Shown: positions 2,069 through 10,019 of the stretch, in pieces
Position numbering within the stretch: the first letter of the stretch is position 1
Layout of the letters: each line of letters opens with the position of its first letter
IMG/VR virus record: IMGVR_UViG_2721755712_000002
DNA: 10,019 nucleotides
Direction: 5' to 3' (one strand)
Source: a virus
Lineage: Duplodnaviria > Heunggongvirae > Uroviricota > Caudoviricetes
Made by a program: the position numbers and the translations under genes
The notes under the pieces: generated by a model
Database searches by the model: none
What the model saw: the letters and a program-made list of their open reading frames with translations, nothing else
What the model was told of the DNA's origin: nothing

Positions 2069-2263
2069 TCGTTCTGTATGTCAGGTTTTGACAGTTTTTT
2101 TATGGACTCTAAAAACTATATTTATGGAGTCGCATTACTCTTCACGGCAGGCGCTTTCCAGTTCTGCCCTTGCTTCTGGCTCCATTGGTAATTTGATTCG
2201 CGATCAGCTATGCGGATGGTTTGCTGAACAGGCATAACAACATCTCAGAGGCTATTTTTTGAA

Positions 2264-3501: not shown

Positions 3502-3545
3502 TGGTTGTTCCCTCTCAGCCAGCCAGAAGAAATGCGTTTGTTAAT

Positions 3546-3648
3546 GGTATAGGTGGTACAGGTCTGGTATAGGTAAGATATTGACCTGTACCACTATAAC
3601 GCATTGTTTTTAATGCTGAATTAGCAAAGTGGTATAGGTGGTACAGGT
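3546..3648. repeat. Iteron cluster 2: exact 19-bp direct repeat TGGTATAGGTGGTACAGGT twice (84 bp apart), a partial copy, and an inverted copy
   Basis: Read directly: 3546..3564 and 3630..3648 are identical; TGGTATAGGT at 3566..3575; GACCTGTACCACTATA at 3583..3598 is the inverted copy. Sits between the stop of the primase-like gene (3678) and the start of the 76-aa gene (3501). Confidence 0.7.
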
Positions 3649-3677: not shown

Positions 3678-4457
3678 TTAAAAAACATCATAACCCCCCA
3701 TACCGATCAGACGGGCAAACGCAGCCTGTAGAACTCCGACCTCTGGTAGTTCGTAGAACACGCCATTCCCTCGGTCTGGTCTTCCATGCTTCACCAGCCC
3801 CATTTGTGCAAGTGATTTACCCAGTAGTGATCTGGCAGCTGGTTCTTTAAGCTTTTCCCCACGCTCAAGCGACCACGCTACAAATCGACTAACCATATCC
3901 TTTGCAAACAAACGGACTTCGCCATTAAACGGAGGTTCATTGATTAGCTCGCCATAAAGAAACAATTCAACGCCAGACAGCCCCAGCAAGATTTCTTCAC
4001 GTAAGGCATCGGTCTGTGGCGCTCGTTGAGGGTCAAAACCTGAGAGATCCACCCCTTTAAGATGCCAAAGCAACTTTGCGGCACCGCCATCATTAAGCCA
4101 ACTGTACAGCCGATCAAAATACTCCCGGCTCTGTGCTTTTTCAGGAGATGGCTCAAGCACGAGATAGCGGCGCTCTCTTATCCCTGCCTGTAATACCTGT
4201 GTGCTGTTACTGGCAAATATCAACCGGGCAAAATTCGGCATTGGTTCAGCATCAATTCCCTTGCGCTCAAGGTTAAACGTCGGTTCGCTAATAATCGCTT
4301 CCTGAATAGCTTCTGGTACGCCATTGAGCAGTGACATAACCGCGCCAATCATTAACTTGTCTCTGTTGCTTGGGCTGGCCCCTTCAAGCCAGAACCCTAA
4401 AACAGTCTGAACCTGTTCGATGCGACATTGCGCTTCAATGAGCTGGATGTTGGTCAT
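3678..4457 (-). CDS. Primase-helicase C-terminal-like protein (259 aa); helicase motif C and arginine-finger-like segment, no Walker A in this ORF
   Basis: GGAGAG Shine-Dalgarno 6 nt upstream of ATG 4457. Segment ARLIFASNSTQVLQAGIRERRYLVLEPS resembles the motif C (hhhhS/T-N) plus Arg-finger region of SF3/P4-family primase-helicases. No GxxxxGK(S/T) P-loop is present. Product assignment is from recalled motifs only. Confidence 0.65.
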   Translation of the reverse strand: MTNIQLIEAQCRIEQVQTVLGFWLEGASPSNRDKLMIGAVMSLLNGVPEAIQEAIISEPTFNLERKGIDAEPMPNFARLIFASNSTQVLQAGIRERRYLVLEPSPEKAQSREYFDRLYSWLNDGGAAKLLWHLKGVDLSGFDPQRAPQTDALREEILLGLSGVELFLYGELINEPPFNGEVRLFAKDMVSRFVAWSLERGEKLKEPAARSLLGKSLAQMGLVKHGRPDRGNGVFYELPEVGVLQAAFARLIGMGGYDVF

Positions 4458-4717
4458 TTCGCACTCTCCACATCGATTAAACTGATATCTATCAGGGAGG
4501 TAACTTTTTGTAGCCAGCTATTGATTACTGTCGCCTGTTCCCCTCCCACCGAGGGAATAATCTCATTCATCACATGAACCAGACCTGTGCGCGCTCTGGT
4601 AAGCCGTTCAGTCGCGCAATCTGCGGGAGTGAATGTGTCTGGATATGGCTCTTCGCGCCCCAGCAATGATTCAATTTCCAGCTCACACGGATGACGATAA
4701 ATTAAGTTGATATTCAT
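4454..4717 (-). CDS. Small hypothetical protein (87 aa); contains a Gly-rich segment VGGEQAT that could be a degenerate P-loop (speculative)
   Basis: ATGA overlaps at both ends (4717 and 4454). GGTGGTG Shine-Dalgarno-like sequence upstream. Part of the coupled operon. Confidence 0.5.
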   Translation of the reverse strand: MNINLIYRHPCELEIESLLGREEPYPDTFTPADCATERLTRARTGLVHVMNEIIPSVGGEQATVINSWLQKVTSLIDISLIDVESAK

Positions 4718-4908
4718 TTTTCACCACCAAGAATTACCAGCTCTGCACGGGCATCGTTAACCAAAGATGAGCACGCTTTAATCGCATCCACGACATCAGC
4801 AGCGTCCATTTCTTCAGCCGAAAGACTGACAGCAACCAGGACAGCCGCTGCTTGCTCGATTAATTGAAGTGCGGACGTAAGGCGAGGGGTATTAATTGAG
4901 TTATTCAT
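4714..4908 (-). CDS. Small hypothetical protein (64 aa)
   Basis: ATG 4908 with ACGGGGG Shine-Dalgarno-like sequence upstream; 8-nt overlap with the upstream gene; stop TGA overlaps the next ATG (ATGA). Confidence 0.5.
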   Translation of the reverse strand: MNNSINTPRLTSALQLIEQAAAVLVAVSLSAEEMDAADVVDAIKACSSLVNDARAELVILGGEK

Positions 4909-5119
4909 TGGTTGCCCCCGTTTTTACTGGCATTTCGCCACCTTCCAGCAGGAAATGAACGTCACGAACGGCGAGATCCAATATCGCGAGTAACGCCTTC
5001 AGTCTTTCGTCTCGTGAGGGAGAGTTGCTCACCAGAATGTCGTTAATCACTTCTGTCAGTGTGATGATCTGGCTTGTGCGTTCGAGGGGATCCATATGCA
5101 CATCGTAGGTTTTAATCAT
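4901..5119 (-). CDS. Small hypothetical protein (72 aa)
   Basis: ATG 5119 preceded by GGAGGTGG; ATGATTAA overlap with the upstream gene's stop. Corresponds to the C-terminal 72 codons of the 355-codon ORF. Stop TAA overlaps the next ATG (ATGAATAA). Confidence 0.5.
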   Translation of the reverse strand: MIKTYDVHMDPLERTSQIITLTEVINDILVSNSPSRDERLKALLAILDLAVRDVHFLLEGGEMPVKTGATNE

Positions 5120-5306
5120 GTGCCACCTCCATGCGGATACGACCAGCAAAAAAGCAGACGTGATCGCGCACCAGAGAACGGCGAGCATCGCGTTCAGACT
5201 CGGCAGCAATATGATGAATTTTGGCGGTAATTGTCGGGCAATCGCGGCGAACTGCGGCGATAATCCAGATAAATTGCGTTTTTTGGGTAGGGGTAGTAGC
5301 CAGCAT
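5112..5306 (-). CDS. Small hypothetical protein (64 aa)
   Basis: AAGGAGG Shine-Dalgarno 7 nt upstream of ATG 5306. Codons are E. coli-like (CGC, CTG, GAT, GCC) in this frame, whereas the overlapping frame of the 355-codon ORF is rare-codon-rich here. Stop TAA forms an ATGATTAA overlap with the next gene. Confidence 0.5.
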   Translation of the reverse strand: MLATTPTQKTQFIWIIAAVRRDCPTITAKIHHIAAESERDARRSLVRDHVCFFAGRIRMEVAHD

Positions 5307-5968
5307 GTGGCAGCCTCCTTCAGATAGCAGGTTACGCTACCACCGGAAACGCCAATTTCGCTGGTGGTAGCCCAGACAGGGTTGGCGTAACCGGCTCTGA
5401 AGGATACCGGCGCTTCCGAAGAAGCCCCCGCCTGAGCCACCATTGATTGACAAAGGCGCTGGATTATACACCAACGCCCAAAAAATGGGTGAGTCAGACC
5501 TACGACATAAAAAAAGACGCTCGGCGCGTCATATGTCGCCTTCAGAATTTTTAGGACGCCAATCCCGGCACCCGTTTTATGAGGTGCCTTATAACCATAA
5601 ACCGTGTTGCCGCATAACGGCAAGCTCTTTTTTATGGACTCCGAAAACTCACTATTGGAAGAACCAGAAGCACAGTACATCGCGCTCATTTCGTTAACGT
5701 CACGCGCGTGGACGAAGGTTTTTGTGGAGTCACTACACGAGCAGAGAAAGCCATCTACGACCAGAAATTCTCTGGCATAGCCGCTGACCTTCTCAACGCT
5801 AACACCATCGACCGTAATTTCTGACATAGTTAAGGCATCCGCTCCTACCACCAGCAAATGATAAACTTTGCTTGTATCTGCTGTATTAATGTCTGACTTT
5901 GCTGTCATATTGCTGGATTTTGGCGACATACCAGCCAGTGAAAATATCTTCTTCTGGGCGGTTAGCAT
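5303..5968 (-). CDS. Hypothetical protein (about 221 codons) with no in-frame stop; the frame stays open to 4901, giving the 355-codon ORF in the track
   Basis: ATG 5968 has a GGAGG Shine-Dalgarno 7 nt upstream and overlaps the previous stop (ATGCTAA). Codon usage is good in this frame down to about 5306, then rare codons (CTA, TTA, CGA, ATA, AGG) appear while the -1 frame becomes well-coded. At the expected ATGA start/stop overlap the sequence is ATGC, so the 3' end given here is inferred. Confidence 0.55.
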
Positions 5969-6144
5969 TTGTTAACCTCCGCGAACTCCTTCATGAAACG
6001 TGCCAGCGGTTGTACGCATGGCGATTGATACCCGTCGCGATAAAACGTCACTCGGTTGTGAGACACGCTTTCGACAGTAACGAGTGCTCCGTGGGCATCT
6101 TTGTAGCGTTTTTGAGGTTGTGGTGTTCCTGTCGGCTTAAACAT
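5962..6144 (-). CDS. Small hypothetical protein (60 aa)
   Basis: ATG at 6144 forms an ATGTTTAA overlap with the antirepressor stop codon, indicating translational coupling. The longer ORF-track version (5962..6231) is an unlikely upstream extension. Stop TAA at 5962. Confidence 0.5.
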   Translation of the reverse strand: MFKPTGTPQPQKRYKDAHGALVTVESVSHNRVTFYRDGYQSPCVQPLARFMKEFAEVNKC

Positions 6145-6970
6145 GGACCGCCTCCAGACGCTTGGCGAGCCAGCGTTGCGACAGGCGGGTGAGTTCTCCT
6201 TTGCGCTGCTCATATTCCATGCCCATATCAATTAACGTGATATTGGTGCTTTCGAGATATGAGAGGTGCTCAAGCTGTTCTGCGTTCATATGGTCGCGAG
6301 GTTCGCCAGAATAGCCATTTATCCGCGCCCACTGCTTAGCAGTTAGCCCACCAAGAACGATACGAGAAATCATATTGCTCTCGTTTGTGTAGTGGTGTTG
6401 CTGCGTCGTTTTCCCCATCTCGGCACGGGCCATATTCAGCGCATCGCACATTGGCTTGAAGTTGTTTGCGGCACTGATACGGGCTTTTAGCTGGCGACGA
6501 TAGCGGGCGGCGATTTCAGGCACGCTACGCTGTAATTCTTTCTCGCACTGGATGAAATAACGGCGGATAGCGCGACCCTGATCATTGCGTTCGATCATTG
6601 CCAGTTCTTTCGCCATTCCGACACTTAACAGATAGTCTTTGCCGGGTCTGCCAGAGTGCTTAATCTTGCTGTAAGCCGCGCCATTCGGGCTTTTCCCCAA
6701 ATTTGGGGAAATTGTTTTATGGACTGAGTAATCGTGCCCAATGGTGAAGTCATATTCAGAGATGCGATCAGTGATCCATGTAGAGAAGTCTTTTCCCACG
6801 CCCAACGCTTTGTGTAACGCTTTTGCGCTAACAATATTGGTTTCACGCCCGCCTATATGACCAGAAATAACCGGGACAATTGCGGCAAATTCATTACCGT
6901 TAATTGTGCCCAGAGAGGCGTTCAGATGAGGGGCGGCCTCAGAAATTAATCTGCTTTTTTCGATGTTCAT
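6137..6970 (-). CDS. Phage antirepressor, AntA/Rha/KilAC-like (277 aa)
   Basis: N-terminal SAKALHKALGVGKDFSTWITDRI and central GKDYLLSVGMAKELAMIERNDQGRAIRRYFIQCEKEL match the conserved core of phage antirepressor families (recalled motif). GGAG Shine-Dalgarno 8 nt upstream of ATG 6970. Confidence 0.8.
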   Translation of the reverse strand: MNIEKSRLISEAAPHLNASLGTINGNEFAAIVPVISGHIGGRETNIVSAKALHKALGVGKDFSTWITDRISEYDFTIGHDYSVHKTISPNLGKSPNGAAYSKIKHSGRPGKDYLLSVGMAKELAMIERNDQGRAIRRYFIQCEKELQRSVPEIAARYRRQLKARISAANNFKPMCDALNMARAEMGKTTQQHHYTNESNMISRIVLGGLTAKQWARINGYSGEPRDHMNAEQLEHLSYLESTNITLIDMGMEYEQRKGELTRLSQRWLAKRLEAVHV

Positions 6971-6982
6971 TTTTAGTCTCCG

Positions 6983-7414
6983 TTAGGCGGCGTTAAACGC
7001 GTCCGGGTAGAGTTTCAGAATGTCGGCAATTTCCTGCTGAGAAAGTCCGTTGTGATCATTTATGTTCGCAAGATGGTTAACATGAGTGATCACTTTCAGA
7101 ACATCACCACGGCAGGAGAAACGGTAGCGAAGGTGTGTTCCGATACCATCAGGATTCTTTTCGTCGATACGCTCCAGAGTGATTCCAAGCTGGCGTTCTA
7201 ACTCTGTTGCATAGTTACGACCAGAAGACAGACGGCAGTAGCGAAGAATGTCATTTTCTGTCCATCCCTCTATACCAGTACGCAGCATATAGACTCGGGC
7301 ACGATGCTTTTTCGGTGTGCGCTTTGGTGCTTGAAGGGATTTTGTAAGGGGCGTAATATCAGATACGCGAATATCTGAATTAGCCGCCTGTAATGGGCGG
7401 TTTTTCTTTTCCAT
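6983..7414 (-). CDS. Hypothetical protein (143 aa), possibly DNA-binding; basic N-terminus
   Basis: ATG 7414..7412 overlaps the alpA stop. Lys/Arg-rich N-terminal segment (APKRTPKKHRAR), then a region that could be a winged helix. Codon usage consistent with neighbours. No family recognised. Confidence 0.65.
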   Translation of the reverse strand: MEKKNRPLQAANSDIRVSDITPLTKSLQAPKRTPKKHRARVYMLRTGIEGWTENDILRYCRLSSGRNYATELERQLGITLERIDEKNPDGIGTHLRYRFSCRGDVLKVITHVNHLANINDHNGLSQQEIADILKLYPDAFNAA

Positions 7415-7632
7415 CAGGCCACCTTCCCGCGGCGTTCTGCCAGCCAGTTATTAATTTCCACCGCATCAAACGCAGTCACGTTATCTGTTAGCTTCACTGG
7501 GCGTGGAAGAGTGCCATTTTTAACCCATCTATCAATAGTAGGCAGTGAAACACCTAGCAATTCCGGCATGCGAAAGCGACGGATGTATCCAGTTGTTGGG
7601 ATAGCTGATGATGCTGGCTTGTGTACTGTCAT
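7414..7632 (-). CDS. alpA: AlpA-family transcriptional regulator / excisionase-like DNA-binding protein (72 aa)
   Basis: Motif RMPELLGVSLPTIDRWVKNGTLPRPVKL matches the AlpA/Xis-type helix-turn-helix signature (TI-x-RW-x-K-x-G-x-P-x-P-x-KL). First gene after the AT-rich control region. Stop TGA overlaps the next ATG (TGATG). Confidence 0.8.
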   Translation of the reverse strand: MTVHKPASSAIPTTGYIRRFRMPELLGVSLPTIDRWVKNGTLPRPVKLTDNVTAFDAVEINNWLAERRGKVA

Positions 7633-7713
7633 GTCTCTAGTAACCTCTCTGATAGCTCATGAAGTTACTTAAAGTTTAGTGGTTGCCCATACAGTATTTC
7701 TATTAAGACTAGA

Positions 7714-7769
7714 ATCTATTGAAAGAAATTATAAATCTATTGAAAAAATACCGATCCACTGAAAGATTG
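7714..7769. promoter_or_regulatory. Three direct repeats of a (T)CTATTGAAA(G/A)A-like motif at 21-22 bp spacing, upstream of the AlpA-like gene; putative regulator or nucleoid-protein binding sites
   Basis: ATCTATTGAAAGAAATT at 7714..7730, ATCTATTGAAAAAATAC at 7735..7751, partial copy CCACTGAAAGATTG at 7756..7769. They sit 85-135 bp upstream of the minus-strand start at 7632, in a roughly 30% GC region. Confidence 0.35.
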
Positions 7770-8103: not shown

Positions 8104-8754
8104 TTAGTCGAGATCGTGGACAGCTAATAAAGCCCGTGAGATTTTTTCTAGGAATGTGGCTTTTGCTATTCCTTTATGGGATATCCCTTCATCCTTGATT
8201 AAGGTTTCTATGTCACGGTATATAGCTGTGCGATTAGGTTTCCCATTTTGGATGTAGGAAGATGAGCCTGATTTTTTTATCAGCAGATGTACTATCAACC
8301 CCATCATTTTCATTGTCCCGTTTTCCTCATCCTGCTTTCTATGCTGCCCACGTCCGCTGCGGTTGGTTTCTTTGATGTAGTTTACTAACTGGAGTCCTCC
8401 AAGGTTTCGGGCTTTTTCTTCCCAGCCCTTGGTGCCACGCAAATCATCAATCGCTTCTGATATTTTCTGAACAATTATTTCTGGTGTATTTGTGTCAATA
8501 AATGGGTAAGAAGCTAAGAAAATATCAAGGGCATGGCAAGGCTCATCTTTACTAGTTTTTTCACCTCTGTACACCTTGATAGCTCTGGCAAGATGAGTTC
8601 TGACAAAATCGACATATTCGAAATTTTCCTCAGGCACATCGCTAATGCGCATAGATGGGTTTAGGCCAGCCAAGGCCACAGCCATTTCATGAGGGGTAAT
8701 CGATACAGATGAACAAAGCCGTTCGATTGGCGATTTTCTCAAGATGTTGTTCAC
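8104..8754 (-). CDS. Hypothetical protein (216 aa), AT-rich cargo gene translationally coupled to the integrase; function unknown
   Basis: ORF starts at GTG 8754..8752, overlapping the integrase stop TGA (ATGTGA); alternative in-frame ATG at 8685. About 40% GC in the counted segments against about 50% for the integrase. Stop TAA at 8104. No motif I can recognise. Confidence 0.6.
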   Translation of the reverse strand: MNNILRKSPIERLCSSVSITPHEMAVALAGLNPSMRISDVPEENFEYVDFVRTHLARAIKVYRGEKTSKDEPCHALDIFLASYPFIDTNTPEIIVQKISEAIDDLRGTKGWEEKARNLGGLQLVNYIKETNRSGRGQHRKQDEENGTMKMMGLIVHLLIKKSGSSSYIQNGKPNRTAIYRDIETLIKDEGISHKGIAKATFLEKISRALLAVHDLD

Positions 8755-10019
8755 ATTTGCCTCCGGGCTTTATCGAATGGCGTTACGTTGTAGTCTTTCC
8801 CGCTTTCCAGTGCCACCAGCAGATCTGCCCACTGTGCCAGTGCTGCTTTACGCTCATCAAAATACTGATGACGGTTATAAATCCCCTCTACGCCCTTAAT
8901 GCGATGATTGAGGCATCGTTCCGCCACGACAGGATCAACACCCAATGCTGCTAAATGAGTACGTGCGGTGCGTCGGAAGTCGTGAATCGTGAAATTAGGC
9001 ACATCCGGCATTTCGGCGCGAACCTTAGCCAGTGCTACGGGTAAAGTGCTTTCCTGAATATGTGGGATCATTCTGTTTTGCATCTTCCTGGCCGGAAGCA
9101 CCCATGCGCTATTACATGAAAAGGTGTGTAGCTCTCTCAACCATTCAACGGCTGGGGAAGGTAGAGGTATATCAATAGGGTCTCCGTTTTTGCTGCGTTC
9201 TTCCGGCAAATGCCATACCGCACCATCTAAATCAAACTCTTCCCATCGTGCGGCGCATAACTCCATCTTACGAACGCATAGTGCCAGCAATAGCTTAAAT
9301 GTCAGTTCGTTCTGGCGGCTGAATCCTTTTGCGGTGCGCATAGCCTCGAATAGCCTGATAAGCTCATCGCGAGTTAGCCAACGGTCGCGGGAAACCTCTT
9401 TACCACCAGCATCAGATACTTCAAACGCTGAACAAGGGTTTATCTCCAGAGCGTGGCGTTTTATCCCATAGTCAAAGATACGGCGTGTCCAGCGTAATAC
9501 ATCTGTTGCTATCGTTGGTGCTCCTCGGTCAACGATACCTTTTAACATGTCGTCAATGTGACGTGGCTTAACGTCCTCTACCTTCATATGCCCAATGCAG
9601 GGGTTAATATCCTTATCAATTCTCCGGCGAAGGATATCGGGATGTTTCCATCTCGGAAGTATCTGTCGCTCGAAGTATTCGGCGGCCAGATCTGAAACGC
9701 GCATGGCGTTTTTCTCAGCCTCCATTTTTGCCAGTGCTTCAGCTTTTCGTTCCTGTTTTTCTGCTGCTACGTCATAGCCAAGAGCAACTCTGGCTGACAG
9801 CTCTTTTGCTGTTTCTCTGGCTTTTGATAGTGACAGTTCGGAGTAAGAGCCGATAACCATAGCCCGCTGTTTTCCTGCGAGCTTATATCGGAATCGCCAG
9901 AACGGGACTGTGTAGTTTTTGGGGTAGCAAATATAAAGGCCGTTGCCGTCTGCCTTGCCATCAAATCTGTCTCCCGCCTTTATCCATGCGCGGATCTGCA
10001 TATCTGTGAGTTTTGGCAT
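8751..10019 (-). CDS. int: Tyrosine recombinase / site-specific integrase, P4 family (422 aa)
   Basis: The ATG is the last three bases of the window. N-terminus MPKLTDMQIRAWIKAG...GNGLYICY...WRFRYKLAGKQ is typical of the P4-integrase arm-binding region. C-terminal catalytic region contains HDFRRT (His-x-x-Arg), LNH and GIYNRHQY (candidate tyrosine nucleophile). Family assignment is from recalled motifs, not a search. Confidence 0.9.
   Translation of the reverse strand: MPKLTDMQIRAWIKAGDRFDGKADGNGLYICYPKNYTVPFWRFRYKLAGKQRAMVIGSYSELSLSKARETAKELSARVALGYDVAAEKQERKAEALAKMEAEKNAMRVSDLAAEYFERQILPRWKHPDILRRRIDKDINPCIGHMKVEDVKPRHIDDMLKGIVDRGAPTIATDVLRWTRRIFDYGIKRHALEINPCSAFEVSDAGGKEVSRDRWLTRDELIRLFEAMRTAKGFSRQNELTFKLLLALCVRKMELCAARWEEFDLDGAVWHLPEERSKNGDPIDIPLPSPAVEWLRELHTFSCNSAWVLPARKMQNRMIPHIQESTLPVALAKVRAEMPDVPNFTIHDFRRTARTHLAALGVDPVVAERCLNHRIKGVEGIYNRHQYFDERKAALAQWADLLVALESGKDYNVTPFDKARRQM

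Follow-up and report, generated by a model that had tools for sequence, protein, structure and literature searches.

A 355-codon open frame over an antisense RNA immunity cassette in a P4-like element of Escherichia coli

The stretch of DNA considered here, referred to below as the window, comprises 10,019 nucleotides of a Caudoviricetes virus record (IMGVR_UViG_2721755712_000002). It is 100% identical to sequence of E. coli 99-3165, where the site adjoins yicC/rph, and it is part of an integrative P4-like satellite-type element whose genes in the window all lie on the minus strand. The subject of this work is a 355-codon open reading frame (ORF) of that element, at 5968..4901, and its likeness to the eta frame of phage P4. 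In NZ_CP029981.1, a genome record that is 100% identical, the frame is annotated as a single 355-aa "ash family protein", and neither of the two small genes that lie inside it is listed. Such an annotation had been anticipated in the original prediction, made from the letters alone, which described the frame as a composite of two hidden small genes and an upstream gene that appeared to have lost its stop codon. The sequence statements made there (the ORF at 4901..5968 on the minus strand, the Shine-Dalgarno (SD) sequences, the ATG at 5306, the ATGC at 5306..5303, and the overlaps) are all correct.

Genes and RNAs within the frame

The following features lie along the frame, all on the same strand.

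5968..4901, minus strand: 355-codon long frame, candidate eta-like "shield" ORF (from the ORF list; "ash family protein" in the Prokaryotic Genome Annotation Pipeline, PGAP)
5600..5968, minus strand: N-terminal 123 codons of the long frame, without known domain
5594..5623, minus strand: putative internal promoter (P4 PLE equivalent), with -35 TTGCCG at 5623..5618, an 18-nt spacer and -10 TATGGT at 5599..5594
5510..5587, minus strand: isrK-type RNA (P4 seqA equivalent), Rfam RF01394, 59.9 bits (gathering score 50)
5360..5447, minus strand: C4 / P4-CI-type antisense immunity RNA, Rfam RF01695, 79.9 bits (gathering score 45)
5314..5355, minus strand: downstream C4 targets (P4 seqC, P1 a2/b2 equivalent), recognised by complementarity to C4
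5112..5306, minus strand: 64-aa icd/kil-like gene, -1 frame as seen from the long ORF, NCBIfam NF033153
4901..5119, minus strand: 72-aa gene in the same frame as the long ORF, with the SD sequence GGAGGTGG at 5130..5123

By sequence comparison, the 64-aa ORF at 5306..5112 is a real gene. Its product matches the NCBIfam model phage_ICD_like (NF033153) with 71.6 bits at a cutoff of 25 and is 42% identical to P4 Kil (E 1e-9). In relatives, the ratio of nonsynonymous to synonymous differences (pN/pS) in the icd frame is 0.28, and 63% of the differences are located at icd third codon positions. The gene is preceded by AAGGAGG at 5320..5314, and its ATG at 5306 stands within CACATGCTGG (5309..5300), so that 5306..5303 reads ATGC. 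Codon usage had been said to be good in the long frame down to about 5306 and in the icd frame beyond it, and this could be upheld for the icd overlap only. Over 5308-5120, the icd frame is the best of the three (+0.43 log2 odds and 0 very rare codons), compared with -0.05 log2 odds and 6 very rare codons in the long frame.

The second hidden gene begins with an ATG inside ATGATTAA (5119..5112), which overlaps the icd stop, and it shares its own stop with the long frame, the TAA at 4903..4901 within ATGAATAA, the start of the next gene. Several signs mark this 72-aa ORF as a gene: it has a pN/pS of 0.10-0.28, PGAP annotates it separately (WP_001426173.1) where the long frame is broken, and it forms the only part of the 355-aa product with a predicted local distance difference test (pLDDT) score above 50 in AlphaFold (56-76). 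The 72-aa protein has no match in Pfam, NCBIfam or PHROG. It was considered as a homologue of P4 epsilon and rejected, as there is neither similarity nor a family match. With regard to both hidden genes, the description of the frame as a composite has been borne out.

Two Rfam RNA families are found within 5587..5360, on the same strand as the long frame. The isrK-type RNA contains the target sequences a1 (UUGGCGU, 5562..5556) and b1 (UCUGAAGG, 5546..5539), and a terminator scan places an intrinsic terminator at its end, with a hairpin at 5530..5516 and a U run at 5515..5509. In two related loci (L018 and L022), the Rfam c4-a1b1 model overlaps the isrK match. The downstream targets comprise a2 (UUGGCGU, 5355..5349) and b2 (UCUGAAGGA, 5324..5316), and the latter overlaps the SD sequence of icd, AAGGAGG (5320..5314). 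The recognition loop of C4, UCCUUCAGA at 5404..5396, is complementary to b2 as well as to b1 in isrK, and the single-stranded ACGCCAA at 5388..5382 matches UUGGCGU at both of its positions (5355..5349 and 5562..5556). Conservation of the C4 fold was examined in 24 sequences, in which 98.9% of cells are paired and 16 of the 27 pairs have changed on both sides; slid alignments, used as a control, give 33-53%. The pairing between loop and target is likewise maintained across 23 loci with many different loops. The mean perfect match is 8.7 nt for cognate pairs, compared with 5.0 nt for non-cognate pairs.

The -10-like TATGGT ends 6 nt before the 5' end of isrK. The sequence TATGGTTATAGC upstream of isrK is kept in most loci and aligns with the annotated "-10" of the P4 record, and position and conservation together suggest that an internal promoter is located here. 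A 22-nt motif with partial dyad symmetry, AGTTTTCGGAGTCCATAAAAAA, is found at 5628..5649 on the minus strand, with its centre about 50 nt before the 5' end of isrK. In the form TTTNNGAGTCCATAAAAAA (19-22 nt), the motif has partial dyad symmetry around GGAGTCC and is found at two places in the window, where 0.01 would be expected by chance; the second copy, at 2096..2117 on the minus strand, is upstream of an ORF ending at 1767. The motif is present at the same distance from isrK in 10 other loci, distant relatives included; in L013, L017, L021, L022, L023, L030, and L037 it lies about 59 nt upstream of isrK. Judged from its sequence and placement, TTTNNGAGTCCATAAAAAA may be a regulator site common to two promoters.

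The only protein-family match of the 355-aa product is to Pfam Phage_ASH (PF10554), with 117.2 bits at a cutoff of 26, over residues 124-232, which correspond to nt 5599..5273. This match raises the question of whether the frame encodes a true multi-domain "Ash family" (Bro-network) protein of 355 aa, with a functional sequence that overprints icd. The size of the match (117 bits), the existence of homologues over the full length (330-355 aa, with identity as low as 49% in Klebsiella), and the fact that the frame is kept open all speak for such a protein. However, translation of 5599..5309, the stretch of the RNA cassette, alone yields 110 of the 117 Phage_ASH bits. Over the RNA cassette, pN/pS is 0.90, with differences spread 35/27/31 across codon positions, and over icd it is 1.84 in the long frame, the same as in loci in which that frame is closed. 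The residue changes track the changes in RNA stems and loops. In addition, the N-terminal part is swapped for unrelated sequence in relatives, and in AlphaFold (from a shallow alignment) pLDDT remains below 50 for residues 1-298 and is 21-30 within the Phage_ASH match. A functional Ash protein is therefore considered highly unlikely. The Phage_ASH match is the translation of the promoter, isrK, C4, and the targets, and conservation at the protein level was not found for it.

For this reason, the part upstream of 5306 cannot be treated as an ordinary gene, as had been assumed. Its last 97 codons are the promoter-like site, the two RNA genes, and the targets, and this stretch supplies most of the Ash score and evolves with a pN/pS of 0.90. 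It had also been reasoned that homologues of about 355 aa, conserved over their whole length, would speak against a composite. Such homologues do exist, and yet the agreement is one of form only since conservation in them falls on the RNA sequence, on the out-of-frame Icd, and on the 72-aa gene.

The remaining N-terminal 123 codons have no Pfam, NCBIfam or PHROG match. Their pN/pS is 0.39-0.57, the differences are spread 10/7/10 across codon positions, pLDDT is 21-32, and Klebsiella relatives carry unrelated sequence in their place. The ATG at 5968 is preceded by GGAGG at 5980..5976, and in ATGCTAA (5968..5962) this start overlaps with the stop of the preceding gene, which encodes a DUF4222 protein. 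On sequence grounds, this overlap is the arrangement expected for translational coupling. The N-terminal part is probably a translated linker that joins the upstream gene to the immunity cassette.

Stop codons along the frame in related loci

Openness of the frame was examined in 34 loci from species-representative genomes, which were sampled through the Icd protein to avoid a bias towards open frames. A protein search with the whole ORF carries this bias and was left out of the openness statistics. C4 is carried by 27 of the 34 loci, and 26 of them also carry isrK, at fixed positions upstream of icd. The other seven (L026, L027, L029, L032, L033, L035, and L037) have no C4 or isrK at gathering score and were excluded from the cassette statistics. 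They come from Rosenbergiella, Tatumella, Pantoea, Erwinia, and others. Where they are readable, the icd frame is open far upstream of the conserved core and the N-terminal sequence differs; these loci may use a diverged or different control region.

From the start of isrK to the icd ATG, 28 distinct cassettes contain 0 stops in the long frame, compared with 92 and 89 in its two alternatives. Between isrK and the ATG in C4, six distances occur (144, 132, 129, 105, and 102 nt, and 189 nt in P4), each a multiple of 3. In all 30 loci, the frame starts at an ATG located 354-1127 nt upstream of icd, beyond the promoter-like site. Each of these first ATGs has an SD-like run and is situated at or within a few bases of the upstream stop, overlapping it in most loci. 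On this evidence, the long frame looks selected for translatability, as expected of an eta-type ORF. Taken together with the pN/pS values, the pattern suggests that selection acts only on the openness of the frame and not on its amino-acid sequence.

Another way to account for these counts is that the long frame is never translated and is open by descent, as conserved RNA sequences that happen to be stop-free in one frame. The RNA elements are strongly conserved, so their stop pattern would be inherited, the amino-acid sequence is unconstrained, and in P4 the +1 frame over kil is open without an obvious need. Nevertheless, the variable spacers and the specificity loops, which differ by up to about 37%, are also stop-free, and the spacers have undergone five or more changes in length, all of them in frame. 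The frame also always reaches an SD-preceded ATG near the upstream stop, by way of sequence that is unrelated between such elements as those of E. coli and Klebsiella. Furthermore, according to the account of P4 in PMC10111431, translation of eta has been shown experimentally. An untranslated frame is accordingly regarded as unlikely.

Two frame relations are found at icd. In the first group (18 loci, including P4), the long frame is in frame with icd, and the distance from the C4 ATG to the icd ATG is 138, 135, or 141 nt. The window belongs to the second group (12 loci, 10 of them distinct), in which 137, 134, or 140 nt separate the two ATGs and the long frame passes over icd in the +1 frame. 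In the window, the spacer is 137 nt and not 138 nt, so the long frame enters icd at +1 and is not nested in frame with it. No stop interrupts it along the whole of icd, and beyond icd it is joined in frame to the following gene.

This junction was the basis of the proposal that the upstream gene once ended at an ATGA overlap with icd and that its stop was lost recently, by mutation or sequencing error, so that three genes became fused. The ATGC lies exactly where ATGA would make a start/stop overlap, and in Gifsy-1 just such an AUGA, at the start of the following gene, ends the equivalent short ORF (orf45). However, none of the 10 distinct relatives with the +1 frame relation has a stop at this position, and no shorter protein in the database ends at the icd junction. 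Of 5,426 complete E. coli genomes, 478 (about 9%) carry the full-length frame; it was also found by protein search in clusters of more than 1,000 member sequences, and it is open in lineages whose synonymous sites are about 55% diverged. A recent loss of the stop is thus extremely improbable, and this part of the original prediction has to be abandoned. ATGC in place of ATGA is the normal state of the subfamily, and there is no lost stop.

The +1 frame across icd is stop-free in 12 of 12 loci of the second group (10 distinct), and in 9 of the 10 distinct loci it runs on, still in frame, into the gene that follows. Among the 18 loci of the first group, only that of P4 has this frame open. The chance that the +1 frame would be open, given each Icd protein, was calculated exactly for synonymous resampling and ranges from 0.03 to 0.70 per locus. 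The product over distinct lineages is about 2e-5, which is a rough figure as the lineages are related, although pS, the divergence at synonymous sites, is 0.55. Within icd, the pN/pS of the +1 frame is 1.84 in the second group, compared with 1.65 where that frame is closed. Genuinely overlapping coding, one of the options raised for this region, has therefore been confirmed in a weak sense only, insofar as an overlapping frame is kept stop-free, but not with regard to its amino acids, which are not conserved.

A further possibility is a -1 slip at CCC AAA AAA C (A run 5284..5279), which would carry ribosomes from the long frame into the icd frame and recreate a nested Eta-Kil fusion like that of P4. 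The geometry is suitable, as the long frame is +1 to icd, a -1 slip lands in the icd frame, and the run of six A is 22 nt into icd. However, 6 of the 10 distinct relatives that share this frame relation lack the run (L006, L016, L019, L030, L031, and L036), and the long frame is open well past it. Very little credence can be given to such a slip.

The surrounding element

Outside the long frame, the following genes of the element are located in the window.

10019..8751, minus strand: integrase
7632..7414, minus strand: AlpA-type regulator
6970..6137, minus strand: AntA/AntB-family gene (AntA domain)
6144..5962, minus strand: DUF4222 gene, upstream of the long frame; Pfam DUF4222, 85.5 bits; a PGAP coding sequence in the identical genome
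4908..4714, minus strand: small gene
4717..4454, minus strand: small gene
4457..3678, minus strand: primase remnant

The 259-aa "primase-helicase family protein" (3678-4457, minus strand) is a deletion fusion. Residues 1-54 are 98% identical to a separate 73-aa protein of the relative L003, and for the remainder the match to a phage primase profile is confined to its C-terminal part (positions 637-820 of 855). The TOPRIM/DUF927 part of the primase is gone from this copy of the element, which is probably replication-defective. A perfect 19-nt direct repeat, TGGTATAGGTGGTACAGGT, is present in the gap downstream of the primase remnant (3545-3563 and 3630-3648 in plus coordinates, with a spacing of 85 nt), and its sequence and position could be iteron-like or origin-related.

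The element is a mosaic. Its flanks differ by 1-2% from relatives, whereas the isrK-C4-target cassette (5321-5563) differs from L003/L004 at 90 of 243 positions without an indel. To judge from the alignment, such divergence between similar flanks looks like a swap of immunity specificity. The AlpA gene (7414-7632) differs from that of L002-L004 at about 47-49% of positions. Upstream of this AlpA-type gene, an intergenic 15-nt direct repeat, AATCTATTGAAAGAA, occurs at 7713-7727 and 7734-7748 (93% identical, with a spacing of 21 nt), where a regulated upstream promoter would be expected. The int-alpA RNA of Rfam (RF02996) is found upstream in one related locus (L028, 317-384, 47.6 bits), and it has no match at gathering score in the window.

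Comparison with known systems and meaning of the frame

The closest comparison is provided by the immunity region of P4, in which the PLE promoter, seqA, the CI RNA (seqB), seqC, and the nested eta/kil frames follow one another (Sabbattini 1995 and Forti 1999, as summarised in PMC10111431). According to that summary, transcription from a constitutive promoter within eta is terminated by way of CI/seqA RNA interactions, the transcripts are processed to CI RNA, and Kil is the short form of Eta. Synthesis of full-length Eta is said there to require a late promoter located upstream and to be coupled to the preceding gene, and its translation to prevent termination (PMC10111431). In the P4 record (L038), the isrK model matches at 1155-1232 (seqA and the terminator) and the C4 model at 1340-1427 with 74.9 bits, while a long ORF (1035-1679) spans both RNAs and ends in Kil. 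P4 records annotate part of this ORF as "put. ash gene (aa 1-137)" or "cI gene product", and Phage_ASH matches there.

The window resembles P4 in the order of its parts, the Rfam families, the homologous Kil/Icd-like protein, and the Phage_ASH match on the same stretch. In both, the long ORF begins at the stop of the preceding gene, ahead of the internal promoter, and covers the RNAs. They differ in that eta and kil of P4 share frame and stop, whereas the long frame of the window crosses icd at +1 and has its end in common with the following gene. As the coupled gene upstream, the window has a DUF4222 gene and P4 an alpA homologue, the next gene in the window is not epsilon, and the specificity loop is UCCUUCAGA in the window and CCUGUGAA in P4. 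This out-of-frame version of the eta/kil arrangement is previously undescribed.

The immI region of P1/P7 is said to have been described by Citron and Schuster in 1990 and by Riedel in 1993, and it reportedly comprises the c4 antisense RNA, the a1/b1 and a2/b2 targets, icd, and ant. For this comparison, the Rfam families RF01695 and RF03163 were used. By analogy, a C4-family RNA would in both cases be cut from a transcript that it regulates itself, and both have two target pairs, the downstream one on the icd ribosome-binding site. They differ in that no antirepressor follows icd in the window, where the 72-aa gene is found instead; an AntA/AntB-family gene lies upstream (6970..6137). P1 is not known to have a long ORF over c4.

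The third system is the isrK-orf45-anrP region of Gifsy-1 (Hershko-Shalev 2016, PMC4825925), in which orf45 is translated and overlies a processed RNA of ~80 nt. Its nucleotides are conserved and its amino acids variable, and it is coupled to anrP, on whose start it ends with AUGA (PMC4825925). Common to Gifsy-1 and the window are an isrK-family RNA with a terminator, followed by an ORF over RNA. An in-frame ATG at 5443 in the window corresponds to the start position of orf45, 45-46 codons before the ATG of the next gene. However, orf45 starts after isrK, whereas the frame of the window starts 380 nt before it. Moreover, orf45 stops at AUGA, whereas the window has ATGC and the frame runs on to 4901, and the next gene is icd-like in the window and an antirepressor in Gifsy-1.

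By analogy with P4, the 355-codon frame is probably the counterpart of eta, a translated frame over an RNA immunity cassette. The anatomy of the locus, the covariation of the RNA, the homology of the parts, and the avoidance of stops are the observations behind this reading. In such a system, transcripts from the internal promoter would yield processed C4 RNA. C4 would pair with a1/b1 and a2/b2, the translation of icd would be blocked, and the untranslated RNA would be terminated, which would constitute the immune state. Transcripts begun further upstream would include the ATG at 5968. Ribosomes starting there would read through the targets, the C4 sequence, and icd, and their traffic would keep the RNA unfolded and shielded from Rho, so that upstream-initiated transcripts would be insensitive to immunity.

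The frame relation of the second group permits a more tentative proposal, which is possible but less than probable. A 1-nt change in the spacer would have moved the shield ORF out of frame with the toxic Kil/Icd, and selection would keep the +1 frame stop-free without constraining its product. Upstream-initiated transcripts would then be shielded by ribosome traffic from antisense immunity and from Rho without the production of a Kil-containing protein, and the ribosomes would be delivered directly to the next gene.

Several points weigh against the eta-like reading of the frame. Promoter use, RNA processing, Rho-dependent termination, and shielding are all carried over from P4 and P1, and a consensus promoter scan called nothing convincing in the region, including the site of the internal promoter. 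P4, with its in-frame arrangement, also has an open +1 frame over kil, so openness there can arise without the shield explanation. The loci are related, so that the counts of open frames are not independent events and the chance figures are approximate. In one close relative, L003, the N-terminal part is interrupted by a stop. Finally, most of the primase is lost from the window, so this copy of the element may be free of selection.

The identity of the cassette has consequences for annotation. In an evenly spaced sample of complete E. coli genomes, the Icd-like gene is unlisted in 20 of 25 full-length matches. In the annotation of about 4/5 of the sampled E. coli copies, a single "ash family protein" stands in place of the Icd/Kil-like toxin gene, the 72-aa gene, and the two RNA genes, none of which is listed. 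For finding P4-like satellites, PF10554 has served as the marker of P4 epsilon ("Ash") (PMC8628076). In the P4 record, however, epsilon (1672-1959) matches PF25738 with 170 bits and not PF10554, which matches the eta/CI-RNA region. The marker still finds satellites, yet it is mislabelled. Phage_ASH matches should be read as a sign that a P4/P1-type antisense immunity cassette is present and not as a statement about protein function.

A frame that is conserved for openness and not for sequence offers a simple system for testing translation-dependent protection against Rho and antisense RNA. If the out-of-frame shield is true, it would provide a clear example from nature of an overlapping frame that is selected for translatability and nothing else.

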